Below, piece by piece: positions 45,486-64,000 of a stretch of 64,000 nucleotides of DNA. The notes under the pieces were generated by a model that made no database searches, was not told where the DNA came from, and saw only the letters and a list, made by a program, of their open reading frames with translations. Positions within the stretch are counted from its first letter, which is position 1. Each line of letters starts with the position of its first letter. The position numbers were made by a program, and so were the translations under genes. The stretch is from Fimicolochytrium jonesii (lineage: Eukaryota): the NCBI RefSeq assembly GCF_025526975.1, contig NW_026515697.1, positions 248,001 to 312,000 of the forward strand, given 5' to 3'.

Positions 45486-48093
45486 TCAACTGCGATGATT
45501 CCGCCGTCTAAATGATGTACGAGATAGGGTAGCGGTGACGGTTGCAGGGGGTTTCGTCCTCGTGGGTGATCGCGTCAACGTGGTTGTGCTGCTGGCAAGC
45601 ATAATTGTCTTTGTCACCGAGCCCGTTGGACTCATCGTCGTTTTAGAAGGGGCTGCCGCGCTGGTAGTACGAAGTGTAATAGCCGGCGTCCTGGTGGTGC
45701 TGTGTTGCGTAGGCGTCGAGAAGATGTGAGGTTTGGTGGTGATTATGGCCGTTGTCATGCCCAAGCTTGTCGGGATCGTCGTCTTTTGAGTTGAGTTGAT
45801 GGCTGTAGTATGAGTAGCTACTGTAACGCTCGACGTAGTCGTCCTGACGACCGAACTGGTGGTGGGCAGGACCGGTCCGCCAACTCCCTCGCAGCGACGG
45901 AATCCGCTTTCCTGAGGTACCCGAAGTGGGGGGAGTGGCGGGGGGTTCCCTTGGTTGATACCATCTCCGCACACCCAGCCATAGCCCACACCAACGCTCA
46001 GATCTTTCTGAGCATTCGCGCAGCTCAGCTCCATGGGTTTCACCCGGCGGTGCCAGCCTGCCCGCACTGAATCTTTGTCGAGGGCTGCGATAGCGGCGGG
46101 ATGTGCAGAAGCCCATGATTTGATCGCGGAGAACATATCCTTTTGAAGCCTTGTTTTTTTCGGGGTGAGGAGCGACGATGGGTGATGGAAAACTTGCAAC
46201 GCTATGTTGACCGCGTCATCGAGCGCGGCAGGCGATGGATCGAACCAAGCTGTGACAACGGCGTTGGCCACATGCTCAACAATGACCTTGGCGACCAGGC
46301 CCGCTGGTTCGTTGAGGTGCAAGTCGAAATGATCCTTTGATATGATGGAGTGTGTTGGGTCCGTGGCATTGAAGGATGTGAAGATTTCCTGCTGATCCGG
46401 TGCCGCCGTCACCATGTCGGATAATTTCTGCAGAACCTCAACCGTCTCGATCAGAAGCGGGGTGGCGAGGGGCTCGATGAAGCTGTATATGATTCGCTGG
46501 AATAAAATTGAAACTTCCTGTTGAAGCCATCTGAAGCCGGGTATCCGATCAATGATCGCGGAAACTTTCTTCATGATCCTGTCCCGCAGTTCAAGCAGCC
46601 GCCATAGACGAGCGAGCACTTCCCGCTCTTCGTCGGTTAAACCGTCGTTGAGGGAGATCTTCAGAGGGTGGGTAAAATCGGAGAGAGTTTTTTCAATATC
46701 GTCGATGATGCTTTCCATCTCTTCGTCGAAGTGCGTAAGTTTCCGCAAAAGACCGATTAGGGTAGTCAATGTCGATAGGGGATCACGACGATGCAGGTGT
46801 GCTTCTTGCTTCATCTCCTTCATCAGCGACTGGATCTCAAGGGAGCCGATTTTGTCTTTGATCTCGCCCAGTAGCGAGTGGGCCAAATCCCACTGTCCAA
46901 AGGTACCGGTTGTGATGGGGTAGATAGGACGATAGCAACCTGCCCGCTTTGCGCTCGACGACAGCCAGTCAGGCAGCCAGTCTCTGACAGTCTCCCAAAC
47001 GCCGCTTTCGGCAGGCATAAAGTCGTACTTGATCGGTGCGAGCTCGCCGATGTATGGAAAGACATGGCGATATCCAAGCTCCGCCAAAGTCAGCTCCACG
47101 TAGTTGGTGTGAGCTGAGTAGTCCTCCAGCGTATGCAGGGCTTGTCCTAGTAACCTGAGACCATCCGTCTCATTTCCAGCGCGGTACCCTTGAATGGCCC
47201 GGGTTAGGGTTTTACGGATGGAAGCAGAGGACGTAGTCCAGTTTCCCTTCTCGTTGGCCATGTAATTTCTCAAGCCAGTTTTCCCGTCCACCTCAAGTTC
47301 ACGTGGGTCGATAGGGCCCCGAAGTTCGTCGTCATAAGTTCGAGCATCCAACGGATAGCCTGCAGATTCGAAATTCGGGGTTAGCCTCGTTATCGATAAT
47401 TTGACTGACACCGCTTTTCACCCGTCTTTGCCTGCTCGCTGACCATCTCTCTCCCATACCGCTCGAAGCTAACGACGCCCTACCTTTCGGGTTATCGACA
47501 TGTTCCTCGGCGCGATAGACACCTAACCGCTTCTGGGTGACTTGAAACTCATCGGTAACGAAGTGTGTTTCTTTGAAGGAAAGCAAGGCGACCACCAAAG
47601 TCAAGGCCTCACGAGGAAGGTGGCGAGAGAGAGTTCCCACATCAATGACCTGAGAATAGTCTCGCAACCAGTTGCCTGTTGAATGATAGGATAAGGAAAC
47701 ATCGCGGTTAGCGAAAAAACAAAAAAATCTGGAAGATGCAGGAAGAGCTCGTTTCGATTCCCGGCAGCCTACTCGTTACTTCTGCCGGCCGGTGGGTCGA
47801 CGGGGCCAACTATTTCTCGCAGTGAGACCGAGGCACTTCGGTCGTGGCACGGTGTCTGTAGCCGCATACTTACCAAAGTAGACCCTTTCCGTATCGAGGG
47901 AGTTGAACTTCTCTTCGAAATTCCAAAAGTGCTTCTTGGGCCTACGCCTCAAATCACGCAGTGTATCCTCGATGTCGCCGTGGCGAAACGCTTTGCCCTC
48001 GAGCGCTGAAGCGGGAGGGACATTCCCCGCATCGAAGGCGGAGACGCAGGACGTGGCCAACAGAAGCGCCACAAGGGTACGCATCCAGCGCAT
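45486..48093 (-). CDS. HET-C family protein with signal peptide and Thr-rich C-terminal tail, 3 exons
   Basis: AFDAGNVP..EGKAFRHGDIED, RVYFG|NWLRDYSQVIDVG, RLGVYRAEEHVDNPKG|Y, LRLLGQALHTLEDYSAHTNYVEL, TGTFG..D..HSLLGE and DPTHSIISKDHF..LNEPAG are HET-C hallmark motifs. Confidence 0.93.
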
Positions 48094-55873: not shown

Positions 55874-56425
55874 TGTTATGGACGACGCGCCCATACCATA
55901 AGCTTACCTACTGACAGCCGCCAATGTGAACCGCCAATGTCAAACGCCAATGTCAATGTCAATGTCAGTGTCAGTGTCAACGTCAGTGTCAATGTCAATG
56001 TCAATGTCAATGTCACTCCCCCTCTCTCCTCTCATTTTGCCAATCCTCCCGCAATATCGCCGCTCCTCCTCTCTCCTCTCATTTTGCCAATCCCCCCTCG
56101 GCTTCTCCACATCCCCCACTACTTCTCCATAGCCAGCAGCTGTAGCAATGCCCTCTACGCTCGCCACGCACGCTCTAGCAGCATAGCTGGCACCCCCCCC
56201 CAGTCCCCTCTTGTTGTTGTTGTTCTCTGGCCTGCTGGGTTGCCTATCTATAAATAGCCGGTCTCTCTTCGTCCATTCCCTTCCTCCCCAGCAGATCAAC
56301 ACCAGTTCTTCTCGTCTCTTGTTCTAGTCCTTGTCTCTTGTTTCGCCAATACAATCTCTTGTTGCCTATCACTCTCGCCTTGTCTTCTCTACTTCGCTTC
56401 CGCCTCAGCCGTCGAGATCATAACA
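55874..56425 (+). mobile_element. Solo LTR of the downstream chromovirus family
   Basis: TGTTATG...CATAACA termini. Colinear and highly similar to LTR 57430-57969, with an internal (A[A/G]TGTC)n hexamer array and TATAAATA. Confidence 0.95.
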
Positions 56426-57429
56426 CTCCATGCTGCGGTGTGTTCCCAGGGTGGGAGCCCATAAACACCTTCATCGTGTTCACAGAAGCCACCCTTGGCG
56501 AAGAGGTCTTGTTCGTGGTTCAGCAATTTCGGATAGTCGATGAGGAGCGTAAGGAGCTGAAGGTACCATGGAGCTTCTCGCCATATGGGGGTAATCAGCG
56601 TAATGGTTGCTCCGTCCGTGACGACCTTGTCGAGCACTTGTTGAATGGCGAGCCAAGGGGGATTGGCCCAGCCATTCTCAGCGTCCCAGCGAATCTTGAA
56701 GGCGTCGTGGGCAATTGCATTGGTGTCCGTCTGGTCGACCGAGCAGTACCTTGAAACTTGAGCGTTCTGCTTCATGGCTAAGAGGTTCACAGTGTGGCTT
56801 TGTGGGCCTCCCCAGGGTCCGTCATCGAGTTGCTGGAAGATGTCCGGGTGCAATTGCCAATAGTTCTTGTCAACCAGGTTGATCAAGTAGAGTTCCTTTT
56901 CGGGTGGCGGAGACGGGTAGCGTGTTTGGTCAGGGTCCTCTGAGTCGGGTTTTTCTTCTCCCAACTTGGACAGGTGTTGGGGTTGTAACAATTCGTCAGC
57001 TGTTGTTATTTCTCCGCGCGTCCCCCAGTCGCTTTCGGAGTCGGAATCCCTGCCTCTTCCCGGGTCTGATGGTGACCGAGCAGGAAAGGTCAGGCTTTCA
57101 TCCTGGTCTTGAGGCAGCAATTCTCCGGGGTCTTCCTGCTCAAGAGCCGTTGGTTCCAGGACTAGTAGGCTCTCGGCTCCTAGCCCTGGCGGGTAAAATG
57201 CCGCTTCTCAGCATTGGCATTTCCCGCCTTGGGGCTTTGTTTGTTGGGGCATACTGGTCTCCCCGTCTCGCGATCCACGTCGTCCTTGAAGTGGTCTCCT
57301 CCGCAGGCGTAACACTTTCCGTCTCCGATCCTTGGTGGTCCTCCCGGGGACTGGCCATTGTTAATCTGCACCTTGGCCATTTGCGATGCAATTTTGGCAA
57401 CCGCTTTCTTGACAACTTCCTGTACTTGC
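56426..57429 (-). mobile_element. Fragment of a second retroelement: Gag zinc knuckle, -1 frameshift site and DNA N6-adenine methyltransferase
   Basis: Gag end CYACGGDH...VCPN...AGNA..QG* (stop 57180-57182). Slippery heptamer G GGA AAT at 57225-57219. The -1 frame leads to WQLHPDIFQQLD..WGGP..TVNLLA..NAQVSRYCS..AHDAFKIRW..WANPPWLAIQQVLDKV..LITPIW..PWY..AAW. Both ends are cut by chromovirus LTRs. Confidence 0.85.
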
Positions 57430-57969
57430 TGTTATGGACGACGCGCCCATACCATAAGCTTACCTACTGACAGCCGCCAATGTCAACCGCCAATGTCAAA
57501 CGCCAATGTCAATGTCAATGTCAGTGTCAATGTCAGTGTCAATGTCAATGTCAATGCCACTTCCCCTCTCTCCTCTCATTTTGCCAATCCTCCCGCAATA
57601 TTGCCACTCCTCCTCTCTCCTCTCATTTCGCCAATCTCCCCTTGGCTTCTCCACACCCCCCACTACTTCTCCATAGCCAGCAGCTGTGACAATGCTCTCT
57701 ACGCTCGCCACGCACGCTCTAGGAGCATAGCTGGCGCCCCCCCCCAGTCCCCTCTGGTTGTTGTTGTTCTCTGGCCTGCTGGGTTGCCTATCTATAAATA
57801 GCCGGTCTCTCTTCGTCCATTCCCTTCCTCCCCAGCAGATCAACACCAGTTCTTCTCGTCTCTTGTTCTAGTCCTTGTCTCTTGTTTCGCCAATACATTC
57901 TCTTGTCGCCCATCGCTCTCGCCTTGTCTTCTCTACTTCGCTTCCGCCTCAGTCGTCGAGATCATAACA
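57430..57969 (+). repeat. 5' LTR (540 bp)
   Basis: TGTTATG...CATAACA termini; TATAAATA at 57793-57800. Confidence 0.96.
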
Positions 57970-58038: not shown

Positions 58039-59045
58039 ATGTCCCAATCCGAATCCGTACCTTTCACCGCCTAGCAATGGAATGATATGTGCCAAGCCAT
58101 CGCCGCCTTGCAAAGCCAAAACACCAACTTGCAGGCCAACCTAGCGCAAGCCCAAGCCAACGCACAAGCTGAGCAGAACATTGCTGCCCAGGTTCAAGCC
58201 GATGCGTTCGCCCATCCTCAAGTCACCAACCCTGCTCCCGGAGCTCTGGAGCCAAGAATCAGCTCGCCGGAGAAGTTTGATGGTACCCGCAGCTAATTCC
58301 GTGGGTGGTTGAACAACATCCGGTTGATGTTTGCTCTCCAGCCCGACCGCTACCCCAGCGACATCATCAAGATCCAAACGATTGGGACCCACCTCACCGG
58401 CACTGCGCAAGCCTGGATGGCGCCCCTAGTCGAACGCCAGATCACAGCCTTCAGAACTTCGATAGTTTTATCGGTCAGATGCAATCTGTCTTCGGGGACA
58501 GCGACAGGGTCCGCACCTCCGAGAACAAGCTCCAGAACCTTCGCCAAACCCGTGCAGCCACCGAGTACGTCGCCAAGTTCCTCCAGCTACAATGCAATGT
58601 CTCCTGGAACGACCAGGCCCTGATTGCTACCTTCCGCCGTGGCCTCAAAGAGGACGTCAAGGATCTGATGCTCACGATGCCTCTTGCTGCCACCATTGAT
58701 ACGGTGATGGAGCAGGCGATCCAGTGCGATAACCGACTGTTTGAGCGCCGCCTGGAACGAAACAGAACCCGCCAGACCTTCCCAGTTCCCCATACCTCGT
58801 TTACCACTACCCTCACCGTCGACCACAGCGAGCCCATGCAGATTGACGCCGCTCGTCCCTGCGGCCCTCTGAGCCCCCAGGAACGCCAACGCCGCATTTC
58901 CAACAACCTCTGCCTTTACTGCGGCGGCGCAGGGCACATTGCAAAGGCCTGCCCCGTCAAGAACAAGACCACCACCCATGCCGCCAACATCGACATCAAA
59001 GAAACCTCCGCCGAACAGGGTTTTCCCAAAGTCCAGCCGCAGTAA
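58039..59045 (+). pseudogene. gag: Chromovirus gag (stops and a frameshift)
   Basis: EPRISSPEKFDG, LTGTAQAW, LQNLRQ..EYVAKF, FRRGL, PMQID and CCHC knuckle CLYCGGAGHIAKAC. Confidence 0.92.
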
Positions 59046-59062: not shown

Positions 59063-62000
59063 AACACACGCTCCGCCGGGCCTCCTAACCTCGCAGCTCC
59101 TGCAACGGAAGAGGCCATCCCCCTGGTTCCCGACTCCGTTATAGCCGACACAACCCTCCTAGCCGCCGCCCATGTCGAAAACTCCAAAATTAAACATTGC
59201 GCTGGGTCCTGCTGAACCCTTCAACTACCCCGTTACCATCATGGTATCATCCAGCCATGCCCCGATACCTACCTCAGCCATGATTGACAACGGGGCCCTG
59301 TCCTGCTTCATCGACGAAGACTTTGCCCGCAAGCACCGCATGCCCCTAGTCCAGCATCAGCGTCCCCTGACGATCGAACTCGTTGACGGTCAACCCAGCT
59401 CTGCTGGGCCAATCACCCATCACACCCAACCAGTAGGCATGTGGGTCGACGACTACTTCGAAGAACTCGTCTTCCATGTCACCAAATCACCCCACGCTCC
59501 AATCCTCCTTGGTCTCCCCTGGCTCCGCCTCCACGACGTTAACCTTGACTTCAAGAACCTTTCGGTCGGTTTCCGTTCCGACTATCAGTACCATGAATTC
59601 GCAAATTGGGACCGCTCCCCAGCACACCCGAGCCCAGCACCCGCCAGAACTCCTGAGCCCTTGATCCGCATCCCCCAGGATGAAGTCCCTGTCGACGAAA
59701 CATGGTCGATCCCAGTACCCAAGGTGTCTCGCTCCAGCACCCCAGAACCGGCTTCCACGCCGCTCTGAGTATCGTTCATCTCCGCCCCAGCCTTCCGCGT
59801 CGCGGCAAGGCATGACCAGGTCCTTGTCGCCTACGCCAACCCTGCGAAACCCGAGCTCCCGGCCTCGCCTAGCCCCAGGACCCTCCCAACACCCGAGAAA
59901 GACATCAAAGACTTCCTGCCCCCCGAATATCAAGATTTTGCCGATGTTTTTGAAAAGAAAAATGCTGACACTCTCCCCGAGCACCGGCCCTACGACTGTC
60001 CTATCGACCTGAAAGAAGGCAAGCAGCCACCTTTCGGCCCGATCTACAGCCTCATCAAACCAGAAATGAAAGCACTCTGCGAATACCTCGAAGAAAACCT
60101 CGCCAAAGGATTCATCAAACACTCAAAGTCCCCTGCCGGTGCGCCGGTCTTATTCGTGAAGAAAAAGGACGGTTCTCTCCGCCTCTGCGTCGATTATCGA
60201 GGCCTGAACAGCATCACGGTGAAGAATCGCTACCCCCTGCCCCTGATCAACAGTATCATGGACCGTTTGCGCGGCGCCCGCCGTCTCGGCAAGATCAACC
60301 TCTGCGGCGCTTACAACCTCTTACGCATGCGCCCGGGCGATGAATGGAAGACCGCCTTCCGCTGCCGCTACGGCCTATTCGAATACAATGTCATGCCCTT
60401 TGGACTCAGCAACGCTCCTGGCGTTTTGCAGTACCTGATGAACGACATCTTCCGCCACATTCTCGATGTGTTTGTTGTCGTCTACCTTGATGATATCCTG
60501 ATATTCTCCAAGAACCCCCTTGGCGGGGCATTGGGTGTGACTTATACTGGAACAGGGGACTCCATATCAGCAAATGTCCTTGCTCCGGCTCTCGATTCGG
60601 GAAATAAAATAGGAGTTCGCTTGGGCACGGCCGTTTCAGCCAATAACGCATTTGAATTGCGATGTACTAATGTAGGTACAGGTTCTGCCGAAAACTATGT
60701 TGTAGCTTCATTTTATGGCAGTACGGTTGATACACTCAGGTTGTATGCTTCAGGGGTTGTTTCCCTTTTAGTCACGACTGATGCAAACGCTGTTGAAACG
60801 GGGTCATTTCAGGTGAAAGGTGGATCAAGTGTTTCTAGAACTCCCTACATGGGGAACTCCACTGCTTTTACTGGCGCGTCCGTACCTCTCATTGTTTCCC
60901 AAAACGCCACGGTGGCTACTGCTCTAACAATCCACAACTCAGCAGTTACCAATGGCTCCTATACATTCGGAGTGTCCGGAACCAGTCATGCTCTAGGTTC
61001 AGGCGAGTTCTTCCTTTCCAGCGGGGCGTTGTCCGGAGCAAATATCTTTTACGTCTTGCCGACAGGAGCAATGGTTTTTCCATCTTCTCTTGATGAGTCT
61101 GTCGCTCTTACAGGAGGAGCACGTATTTCCAAAAATTTAGTTGTTACCGGCGCTACCAGCAGCACACTTTTATCTGTGAATGAAGACGGTACTCTAGTTT
61201 TTGGTGCATCCTCAACAGGTCCACGGTTTGTCAAAACTTTGGGTCAAGATGTACGTTACGTACCAGGCGCACAAGGTTTTCGTATACGCGACTCTGGAGC
61301 ACGTCCGCGAAGTCTTGTCCTGCCTCCGCCAGCATGGGCTGTACGCCAAACCTGAGAAGTGCGAATTCAACTGCGAATCTGTCGAGTTCCTAGGCTTCAT
61401 CATCTCCAAGAAAGGCATACAGATGGACCCCAAGAAGATCGCTGCCATCACGGATTGGGAGGCTCTTAAGAATGTCAAAGGCGTCCAGCGCTTCCTCGGC
61501 TTTGCCAACTTCTATCGCCAATTCATCCAAGGTTATTCCAAGATTGCTACCCCGCTCACAGCCCTGACCCGGAAAGACATCCCGTACGCCTGGACGCCCG
61601 CCGCAAACACCGCCTTCGAGAACCTGAAGAAATCATTCACCACCGCCCCCATCCTTGCTCACCCTGACCCAGAAAGCCCTTCGTCGTCGAAACTGACGCC
61701 TCCGACTTCGCTCTCGGCGCAGTTCTCCTCCAACCTGACCAGGACAATCAGCTCCACCCTGGGGCCTTCCACTCTCGCAAACTCATGGCCGAAGAGATCA
61801 ACTACAAGATCTACGACAAAGAGCTTCTGGCCATCCAAGACTCCTCTGCCCAGTGGCGACACCATCTCATTGGCGCCCGTCACAAGATCACCGTTTACTC
61901 CGACCACAAAAACCTTCAGTACTTCATGACCACCCGCACCCTGAACCGCCGCCAAGCCTGCTGGTCGATATTCTTCTCGGATTTTGATTTTGTCATTACC

Positions 62001-63600
62001 TATCGCCCCGGTTCCCAGCAGCACCAAGCCGATGCCCTCTCCCGACGCTCCGAACATGAGCTAAAGGAGGGGGAAGAAGCGTTCTGCTCCCAGGCGACCA
62101 CAATTCTGACTCCCGAACGCCTTCGACTCGCCGCGGCCTACCTCACACCCATGGATACTACGCTGGTTGACAAGATTAAGGCCGCCCAGGCCTCTGACCC
62201 CCTCGCTAAGACCATCCGCAAAGAGCTCAAGATACCCCTTGCCCAACGGACGAAACCCAAGATCGTATCAAGCGGTTCTCAGATGAAGATGGGATCCTGC
62301 TGCACGATAACCTTGTCTATGTCCCCACCAATGAGCTCCGAGCTGAAGTCTGCCACGACATGCACAATGCACCCCTAGTCGGCCACTTTGGGATGTCCAA
62401 GACGCTCGAACTTGCCTCCCGCAACTACTGGTGGCCCAGCCAGTGGCGCTTCGTCAAGGCCTACGTCAAGTCCTGCGATATCTGTAGCCAAGCGAAATCC
62501 AGTCGACACAAACCGTATGGCGTACTCCAGCCCAACATATCCCTACCCGCCCTTGGGAATCTTGGTCCCTGGACTTTATCACCGGTCTGCCTCCCGTTGA
62601 TGGGTACGACTCCATCCTGAACGTCAACTGTCGCCTCACCAAGATGGCCCACTTCATCGCCTGCAGCGAGTCAAAATCCGCCGAACCCACCGCCGACCTA
62701 GTCTTCCACAATATCATCCATCTCCACGGCCTCCCCGACGACATCATCTCTGACTGAGGACCCTAGTTCAAGTCCCGTTTCTGGCGTCGACTTCTCAAAC
62801 TCCTTGGGGCGAAAGCCAACATCTCCTTGGCCTTCTACCCCCAGAGCGACGGCCAGACGGAACGCACCAACCAGACCCTGGAGCAGTATCTCCAATGCTT
62901 TTGCAACCACCAACAGGACAAATGGAAACGGCTTCTGTCGTCCGCCGAGTTCGCCTACAAAAACACCCACCAGTCCGCTTCCCAGACCACCCCCTTCTAC
63001 GCAAACAAGGGTCTCCACCCCCGCTTCAGTTTCGCTGCCTCTGCTACCTCCGAATCCGTCAACCCCGCCGCTGAAGCCCACGCTAAACAAATCAGGGGAG
63101 TCCACGAACAGCTCGTCCTTGAGCTCAAGGAAGCGCAAGATCGAATGAAGCGCTACGCCGATGCTAAGCGAATTCCTGGACCGGACTTCAAGCCTGCTGA
63201 CCACGTCTGGCTCCTCCGCAAAAACCTCCAGACAACCCGGCCCTCTCAGAAACTCGACCATCGCAAGATTGGGCCATTTCCCATTGTTGAAAAGATCAAT
63301 CCAGTCGCCTACCGGCTCAAGCTCCTGCCTACGTACAAAATCCACGATGTCTTCCATGTCTCGCTCCTCGAACCCCGCTTCACCATCCCCAAACGACACG
63401 AACCCGAACCCGCGGCCCCAGAGACCGTTGAGGGTCGAGAAGAGTGGGTTGTCGAAGCCATCCTTGACTCTCGCATCCATCGTCGTCGCCTTCAGTACTT
63501 GGTCAAATGGCAGGGCTGGCCTGACTCCGAGAACACCTGGGAGCCCGTGGAACACCTCACCCATACCGACTGCACTCCTCAAGGACTTCCACAGCGCGTA
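59024..63600 (+). pseudogene. pol: Chromovirus pol (PR-RT-RH-IN-chromo), disrupted
   Basis: Domain motifs occur in Ty3/Gypsy order across several frames. RT is interrupted by a foreign insert after [12 protein letters not shown]. Confidence 0.93.
60519..61293 (+). other. Foreign ~775-bp stop-free coding insert resembling a viral fibre protein, inside RT
   Basis: Sits between RT ..[12 protein letters not shown] and LEHVREVL... Gly/Ser/Thr/Ala-rich, with [27 protein letters not shown] and [17 protein letters not shown]. Codons are T/A-ending, unlike the C-ending codons of the retroelement. Confidence 0.8.
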
Positions 63601-63677
63601 CCCCAACAAGCCTTCCTCTGTCCCCGGTGCCCCTCCTCCGCGACCACACCAAACTCGGCGCCGCCGCCGCCGCCGCT

Positions 63678-63691: not shown

Positions 63692-64000
63692 TTTTATGGT
63701 CGACGCGGCCATACCATAAGCTTACCCACTGACAGCCGCCAATGTGAACCACCAATGTCAAACGCCAATGTCAATGTCAATGTCAGTGTCAGTGTCAATG
63801 TCAGTGTCAATGTCAATGTCAATGCCACTCCCCCTCTCTCCTCTCATTTCGCCAATCCTTCCGCAATATTGCCGCTCCTCCTCTCTCCTCTCATTTCGCC
63901 AATCCCCCCTCGGCTTCTCCGCATCCCCCACCACTTCTCCATAGCCAGCAGCTGTAGCAATGCTCTCTACGCTCGCCTCGCAAGCTCTAGGAGCATAGCT
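63692..64000 (+). repeat. 3' LTR (partial)
   Basis: Colinear with 57430 onward; terminal TG mutated to TT. Confidence 0.95.

Follow-up and report, generated by a model that had tools for sequence, protein, structure and literature searches.

A coding segment of foreign composition within a reverse transcriptase

The stretch of Fimicolochytrium jonesii DNA analysed here (64,000 nucleotides, positions 248,001 to 312,000 of the forward strand of contig NW_026515697.1; hereafter the window) carries at its right end a degenerate copy of a Ty3/gypsy chromovirus, an element bounded by long terminal repeats (LTRs) that runs from 57430 to beyond 64000, and the reverse transcriptase (RT) of this copy is broken by a 775-bp insert at 60519-61293. 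In Pfam searches, positions 1-162 of the RVT_1 profile stop at 60515, and positions 166-205 restart in a different frame at 61291-61404. Tblastn with the proteins P0044 and P0037 breaks off at 60515 and 60518, respectively, and P0044 picks up again at 61294 in frame 1. Both results agree with an earlier, sequence-only reading of the window, in which the RT stopped at this point and resumed at LEHVREVL about 775 bp further on, with about three RT codons missing.

The number of missing codons was read from the spacing of a conserved RT pattern, YxDD...KCxF, in 120 RT relatives that are 60-74% identical to the window RT. The pattern matched in 104 of these relatives (16 did not match), and the spacing is the canonical 40 residues in all 104, counting seven that read as 48 because the pattern was caught from an upstream YLDDF, their true spacing being 40. 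In the window RT the spacing is 37 residues, so that three RT codons (about 9 bp) have been replaced by 775 bp, as the earlier reading had proposed. The lost residues correspond to EEH or EDH in the closest KNP/KNE relatives, which read IFSKNPEEHQRHV and IFSKNEEDHINHV. The insert interrupts the RT palm after the YxDD strand, ahead of the conserved helix that comes next.

The bounds of the insert were set by comparison with these relatives at the protein level and are good to about +/-3 bp. Its 3' junction is out of frame with pol (775 = 258x3+1), such that the downstream RT is shifted, and at its edges we found no target-site duplication (TSD), terminal inverted repeat (TIR), LTR or poly(A) tract; on both points the first description of the locus stands. 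A 9-nt repeat, GGAGCACGT, at 61116 and 61296 was considered as a junction microhomology and rejected, as it was counted as internal to the insert; by our own estimate, chance alone would give about three such pairs in 1.2 kb.

The insert is a coding sequence of foreign composition. Read in the upstream RT frame, positions 60519-61292 encode 258 residues with no stop, while each of the other five frames holds 10-15 stops, and none of 20,000 shuffles of the insert was stop-free. The guanine-plus-cytosine (GC) content is 0.477 in the insert as against 0.57 in both element flanks, and GC at third codon positions (GC3) is 0.36, compared with 0.65-0.74 in six coding pieces of the element and 0.54-0.76 in host open reading frames (ORFs) with Pfam support. 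The GC skew, which is about -0.2/-0.4 in the element (a strong excess of C over G), rises to about 0 inside the insert. The translation and these figures bear out what had been noticed by eye, namely a sense-oriented segment, in frame with the upstream RT and open for about 258 codons, that is more AT-rich than its surroundings and favours T/A-ending codons. A 528-codon ORF at 59769-61355, lying behind an in-frame stop, spans the upstream RT together with the insert.

Several familiar kinds of insertion were considered and set aside. An intein was rejected because Pfam gave no family at E ≤ 10, Hint-domain splicing motifs included, and because of the fibre homology described below and the out-of-frame 3' junction. 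A miniature inverted-repeat transposable element or short interspersed element was rejected for want of repeats and poly(A), and a nuclear insertion of mitochondrial DNA (NUMT) does not fit the GC content of 0.477 or the fibre homology. Foreign composition could also arise from an assembly or library artefact, in which a contaminant phage or bacterial read had been joined into a repeat. We find this scarcely credible, given that the flanks continue one RT gene within 3 codons, which would require two independent false joins at adjacent positions.

Homology of the insert to virion fibre proteins

An exhaustive phmmer search (HMMER) of 1,835,955,588 representative proteins with the 258-residue translation, a check of the kind suggested with the sequence-only reading, returned 14 matches at E ≤ 1e-3. 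The best of these, P0002 (library E 5.4e-30), is a 2800-residue metagenomic fibre protein from a 10.9-kb contig that has a discoidin-type domain and a C-terminal Peptidase_S74 (S74) domain at residues 2696-2748. S74 is an intramolecular, self-cleaving chaperone found in phage tail spikes and fibres, and fibre proteins of this kind serve phages and large DNA viruses in gripping cells. Residues 543-794 of P0002 are collinear with residues 3-258 of the insert, with 106 of 268 alignment columns identical (40%; pairwise BLASTP E 3e-39), and the alignment takes in the distinctive end of the insert, RFVK..GQD.RYV.G..FRIRD. Peptidase_S74 stands at the C-terminus of four of the 14 matches (P0002, P0004, P0008 and P0015), and PHROG families of the tail category were found in five of the ten matches scanned, three of the ten giving nothing. 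These results uphold the initial recognition of the insert as tail-fibre or spike-type sequence.

The family alignment resolves into a two-part module, in which a segment of the form L.P.L..G...G.A.S.NN....F...G.GS..N....YG is followed by TTDSTS.TTGALQV.GG.GIAK.LYVGG. The insert, which is rich in Gly, Ser, Thr and Val and has repeated motifs, comprises one full two-part module and a second copy of the motif TG..V.GG..I.K.L.V.G, and it keeps the invariant G36, G55 and N59 of the family. The two copies of a TG..V.GG..I.KNL.V-type motif pointed out earlier are real, and their counterpart in the homologues is a repeated motif of the TTGALQVxGGxGIAKxLYVGG type. The insert has neither the N-terminus nor the S74 domain and brings no promoter or stop codon with it, and no other ORF of the window gives a match to the fibre profile or the fibre proteins. 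At the level of sequence there is good support for regarding it as an internal piece of a virus-type fibre gene. As a separate observation, several full-length members of the family (P0002, P0003, P0007 and P0008) carry the motif TTDSTS...GG...K.LYVG within about 10-15 residues of the start of the protein.

Other searches with the insert returned little. No family was found in Pfam or PHROGs at E ≤ 10, word-seeded protein searches at near and longer lengths gave nothing at E ≤ 0.01, tblastn against 50,697 phage records gave nothing at E ≤ 1, a scan of IMG/VR gave no match, and a profile search of the PDB gave nothing at E ≤ 1. AlphaFold2 (AF2) models of the monomer, with mean predicted confidence (pLDDT) of 40.1 from the single sequence and 60.2 from a 15-row alignment, contain strands only. 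A Foldseek search with the monomer model gave no match at E ≤ 1e-3 in BFVD or the PDB, the weak top rows being mostly tail fibres, and the ESM Atlas gave 0.92 to unnamed clusters, one of them viral, which is a weak lead. The two-part module itself has no Pfam or PHROG model and no relative in the PDB, and we propose it as a candidate new domain family.

Among the 14 phmmer matches there is no fungal protein apart from P0010, from the chytrid B. salamandrivorans. This match was rejected as a homologue, since it consists of six repeats of about 7 bits each in an unrelated repeat protein.

Possible donors and the probable route of capture

Peptidase_S74-terminated fibres are virion structures of phages, polinton-like viruses and giant viruses. 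The insert shares with them a homology over its whole length, with S74 domains and PHROG tail families in its homologues, and differs in being only an internal 258-codon fragment that lacks the N-terminus and the S74 domain. According to one study, modular fibres that end in Peptidase_S74 and reach 3.9k residues are ubiquitous in polinton-like viruses of many eukaryotes (PMC12220804). We infer that the donor was DNA of a double-stranded DNA (dsDNA) virus. The sequence-only reading went further and saw in the insert the fossil of a DNA-virus infection of this fungus, and the genomic settings of the relatives bear on that claim.

The nearest match with a readable genomic setting is a module-bearing ORF at the edge of a 9.5-kb IMG/VR contig, 50% identical to the insert over 60 residues. 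Its neighbours encode an endolysin-like protein, a ThyA-like protein (phrog_5131, E 5.6e-86), a 5-hmdU DNA kinase and a glucosyltransferase, a phage-type gene set, with no capsid or portal gene on this piece. A distant relative of another match, P0013, itself without the module, shares its contig with genes for a portal protein, a prohead protease and an HK97-type capsid. Searches of IMG/VR with P0013 gave three loci, none with the module, and the one that was examined is a tailed phage.

The module also occurs in a 1989-residue ORF that has four tandem copies of it, on a contig of 41 kb that was assigned by its authors to a giant-virus metagenome-assembled genome (GVMAG), where it is 34% identical to the insert over 73 residues (pairwise E 3e-7). 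Neighbouring genes encode an EsV-1-7 cysteine-motif protein and ankyrin proteins, and the GC content of the contig, 0.485, is near the 0.477 of the insert. In the 29.7 kb of this contig that were examined there is no hallmark gene of nucleocytoplasmic large DNA viruses (NCLDVs) or of phages. Beside the 1989-residue ORF, from 13.8 to 29.7 kb, runs a series of ORFs of about 380-500 residues without a Pfam family, which look like a paralogous array.

Other settings are diverse. A collagen-repeat protein encoded among chromosomal genes of a Bacteroidetes metagenome-assembled genome carries the module at 35% identity over 85 residues, and two of the phmmer matches are encoded side by side on a 46-kb contig from a moss assembly. 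In IMG/VR, P0008, P0007 and P0003 have no relatives, and P0002 has relatives at 24 loci, all of which align to other parts of the protein (residues 19-173 and 893-1117), none with the module. A metagenome scan gave no locus for P0009 and two for P0011, both without the module. The pattern scans for the module used the smaller alignment A2, alignment A1 being too divergent for them.

The window itself offers no viral company for the insert. Among 94 ORFs of at least 130 residues in window positions 1-57300, Pfam searches detected no viral family and no hallmark capsid, packaging ATPase or polymerase, and the families that were detected are all cellular: PFU, KRI1, UQ_con, Maf, ABC-C transporter, STT3, actin-family, GRAM, T1-type ribonuclease, Het-C and GSIII_N. 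The genes in the window are compact, with short introns, and together with Het-C this backs the sequence-only reading in taking the DNA to be fungal. The clearest fungal marker among them is a Het-C homologue that is split over two ORFs at 45486-47775 on the minus strand, probably by an intron.

Together these observations allow only a tentative hold for the proposal that the insert is the fossil of a dsDNA virus, giant or polinton-like, that infected the fungus and whose donor sequence may persist as an endogenous viral element. The module in an ORF of a GVMAG contig of similar GC content and the ubiquity of S74-ending fibres in polinton-like viruses speak for it, as do the giant viruses and giant endogenous viral regions known in fungi (PMC13533422 and PMC10640383) and the consideration that viral DNA in an infected cell would be an obvious substrate for capture. 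Against it stand the phage-type neighbours of the nearest placed match, the tailed-phage genes beside the relative of P0013, the presence of the module in a bacterial assembly, the want of NCLDV hallmark genes in the 29.7 kb examined of the GVMAG contig and of viral families in window positions 1-57300, and the single, spurious fungal entry among the 14 matches. Infection of the fungus by a DNA virus is therefore not established, with the nearest placed match being of phage type, the module being present in a bacterial genome and no other viral gene appearing in the 57 kb scanned. A donor that was a eukaryote-infecting virus (polinton-like or giant) and one that was a phage or prophage have, in our estimation, roughly equal odds.

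Endogenous giant viruses of fungi, such as the Mycodnaviridae of zoosporic fungi and a 1.5-Mb region in Rhizophagus irregularis, resemble the present case in that virus-type DNA has become fixed in a fungal chromosome (PMC13533422 and PMC10640383). Those elements are recognised by hallmark genes and multi-gene regions, whereas here there is a single 775-bp non-hallmark fragment with no viral neighbour. The words fiber, fibre and endosialidase are absent from PMC13533422, and our literature search on phage tail-fibre genes in fungal genomes found no report on the subject. We consider it rather unlikely that a fibre-bearing dsDNA virus, of which this fragment would be the first trace to come to light, formerly replicated in this Het-C-bearing filamentous fungus and persists in its genome as an endogenous donor sequence.

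As to how the fragment entered the element, our preferred reading, to which we assign a probability of roughly 0.6, is that a piece of a fibre gene was captured by end-joining repair at a break in a resident element copy and likely has no function now. A linear fragment of dsDNA-virus DNA would have been taken up as filler at a double-strand break, with about 9 bp of the RT lost at the break and 775 bp joined in. The sense orientation and in-frame 5' junction would then be a matter of chance, with odds of 1 in 6, and the insert would still be open because the ORF it came from is very long and because decay has had little time, or little chance, to set in. End joining is favoured because the target deletion is small, because there is no TSD, repeat or poly(A), and because one junction is in frame and the other out. 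This anatomy is what filler capture by non-homologous end joining (NHEJ) leaves behind.

The NHEJ machinery has been shown experimentally to capture unrelated linear DNA at breaks in yeast (PMC1976456), and the mechanism is documented for NUMTs in primates (PMC2567098). The present insertion shares with NUMTs and with the fragments captured in yeast the entry of unrelated DNA, the small deletion and the missing TSD, repeats and poly(A). It differs in its filler, which in the known cases is organelle DNA or Ty cDNA and here is virus-type coding DNA.

Several points weigh against this reading. The best relative of the insert reaches just 40% identity and lies on an unplaced metagenome contig, the bounds of the junctions come from protein-level comparison only, and the confidence of the monomer models is low (pLDDT 40 and 60). 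Sense orientation is predicted by template switching, while end joining gives it half the time. Finally, the insert has no stop or frameshift, while lesions in the element come at about one per 600 bp; at that rate 775 bp would stay free of them with a probability of about 0.3, which makes this last point uninformative.

The sequence-only reading had offered two routes, template switching by the RT onto a viral mRNA and end-joining repair, and of the two the second fits better with the loss of about 9 bp and the missing TSD. In the template-switching route, the RT would have passed within the virus-like particle from element RNA to a co-packaged fibre transcript and back, and the chimeric cDNA would then have integrated. 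Copying from an mRNA requires the sense orientation that is seen, and chimeric LTR elements formed by aberrant template switching are described from plants (PMC13317346 and PMC1950507). We nevertheless regard this route as improbable, as it needs two non-homologous switches with a return within about 9 nt of the point of departure, which the model does not predict, and donor RNA present in the cytoplasm of the fungus, where a phage would not have delivered it. Moreover, the chimera is known here from one copy, and the only 9-nt repeat is of the kind expected by chance. In the gene transductions of Veju and BARE-2, larger internal segments are swapped or added in multi-copy families (PMC13317346), whereas here about 9 bp are replaced in one known copy. 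What the cases share is a foreign coding fragment in sense orientation inside an LTR element. Maize Bs1 is reportedly a further example of gene-fragment transduction by template switching.

The host element and the fate of the insert

The chromovirus copy is collinear with full-length relatives by tblastn, and Pfam domains follow the order gag, protease, RT, RNase H, integrase and chromodomain between two LTRs, the protease matches being weak (Table 1). The LTRs, compared over 57432-57732 and 63694-64000 by self-BLASTN, are 92.2% identical, with 18 mismatches and six gap positions in 307 columns. Retrotrans_gag (E 4.8e-13) and zf-CCHC are found by Pfam on 58284-59042, and this gag remnant has an in-frame stop at 58294-58296 and one frameshift. 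The protease region closes at an in-frame TGA at 59766-59768. Relative to full-length relatives, pol is read by tblastn in the frame order 3, insert, 1, 3, 2, 1; the integrase alone has one more frameshift and two in-frame stops (frames 2 then 1). Apart from the insert, pol thus carries three frameshifts and at least three in-frame stops, one before the RT and two in the integrase. The copy is dead.

Table 1. Features of the interrupted chromovirus copy, in window coordinates.
Feature	Coordinates	Strand	Basis
5' LTR	57430..57969	+	self-BLASTN
gag remnant, Retrotrans_gag and CCHC knuckle	58075..59045	+	Pfam, ORF layout, tblastn with P0045
Aspartic protease region	59163..59768	+	Pfam gag-asp_proteas / RVP_2, below curated cut-offs
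N-terminal RT part	59769..60518	+	RVT_1 profile 1-162 at 60156-60515, E 2.3e-21
Foreign insert, internal virus-type fibre-gene fragment (258 open codons + 1 base)	60519..61293	+	translation, HMMER, BLASTP, GC3
C-terminal RT part, starting LEHVREVL, +1 frame relative to upstream RT	61294..61668	+	RVT_1 profile 166-205 at 61291-61404
RNase H domain, again in another frame	61674..62207	+	RT_RNaseH E 5.7e-32; tblastn frame 3
Integrase with SH3_Tf2-1 and chromodomain	62210..63609	+	SH3_Tf2-1 E 4e-21, Chromo E 3.2e-15
3' LTR, remainder cut off by the window end	63694..64000	+	self-BLASTN to 5' LTR

Further retroelement sequence lies close by. A third LTR of the same family, at 55874-56425, about 1 kb upstream of the element, is 93-94% identical to the 5' and 3' LTRs and represents a solo LTR or else the end of a further copy. 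Between it and the 5' LTR, at 56389-57431 on the minus strand, lies a 272-residue ORF without a Pfam family that neighbours an ORF encoding a CCHC-type knuckle (KCYACGGDHF); they may be what is left of a further retroelement, unclassified and oppositely oriented. All three LTRs contain a CAATGT/CAGTGT hexanucleotide microsatellite (55940-56010, 57490-57560 and 63750-63830), which translates as (NV)n, (QC)n or (MS)n depending on the frame. The closest named relatives of the RT include uncharacterised proteins from several frog genomes at 53-69% identity (P0018-P0020, P0023, P0025, P0026, P0032 and P0104), about as near as a smut-fungus protein (60%); nearer relatives, at up to 74%, are mostly from unnamed metagenome or transcriptome contigs of 4-6 kb.

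The insert is most likely inert and without function now, because pol carries frameshifts and stops, gag has lesions of its own and the LTRs are only 92.2% alike. The 528-codon ORF that joins RT and insert is a chance fusion. An in-frame 5' junction, 258 open codons and the retained G36, G55 and N59 could be taken as signs of a working fusion or of a propagating subfamily, in which the fibre piece was kept as a pol or env-like domain and the 3' frame offset is a late mutation. This is very improbable in view of that out-of-frame junction, the splitting of the RT palm, the loss of the N-terminus and of the S74 chaperone of full-length fibres, and the many other lesions in the copy; in addition, no protein with this junction was found in a collection of 5.8 billion clusters.

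The suggestion that the insert resembles a step towards env-like gene capture likewise fails, as the piece lies inside the RT catalytic domain and not after pol, lacks S74 and sits in a copy with other stops and frameshifts. The env of errantiviruses, in Ty3/gypsy-like elements, derives from a baculovirus fusion protein, and the likeness to the present case is that a gene for the virion surface of a DNA virus has entered a Ty3/gypsy-type element. In errantiviruses, env forms an additional full ORF after pol and has both a signal peptide and a membrane anchor, whereas here a truncated shaft piece lies inside the RT and breaks pol. Between the integrase and the 3' LTR of this copy, where a complete extra ORF would be sought, nothing foreign lies between 63609 and 63694.

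The insertion is a new example of known processes, namely the fixation of foreign or viral DNA in fungal genomes and the capture of filler by a repeat, and is probably a molecular fossil of a rare kind with no working role. Whichever donor supplied it, what remains is one dead fragment, and it does not show a retroelement in the course of acquiring an envelope gene. Pieces of foreign DNA that have become fixed in repeats are a natural record of the DNA that reached a nucleus, and the record here is of a virion attachment-fibre gene, while surveys for viral fossils in fungi search for capsid and polymerase genes instead. The two-part fibre module may merit a family description of its own. If the donor was a phage, the locus would document a clean transfer of DNA from phage to fungus with its integration scar preserved. 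If it was a eukaryotic virus, the fragment would offer a way into the scarcely explored DNA viruses of filamentous fungi, and if the donor is endogenous in the genome, a fungal DNA-virus lineage would be revealed through a non-hallmark gene.

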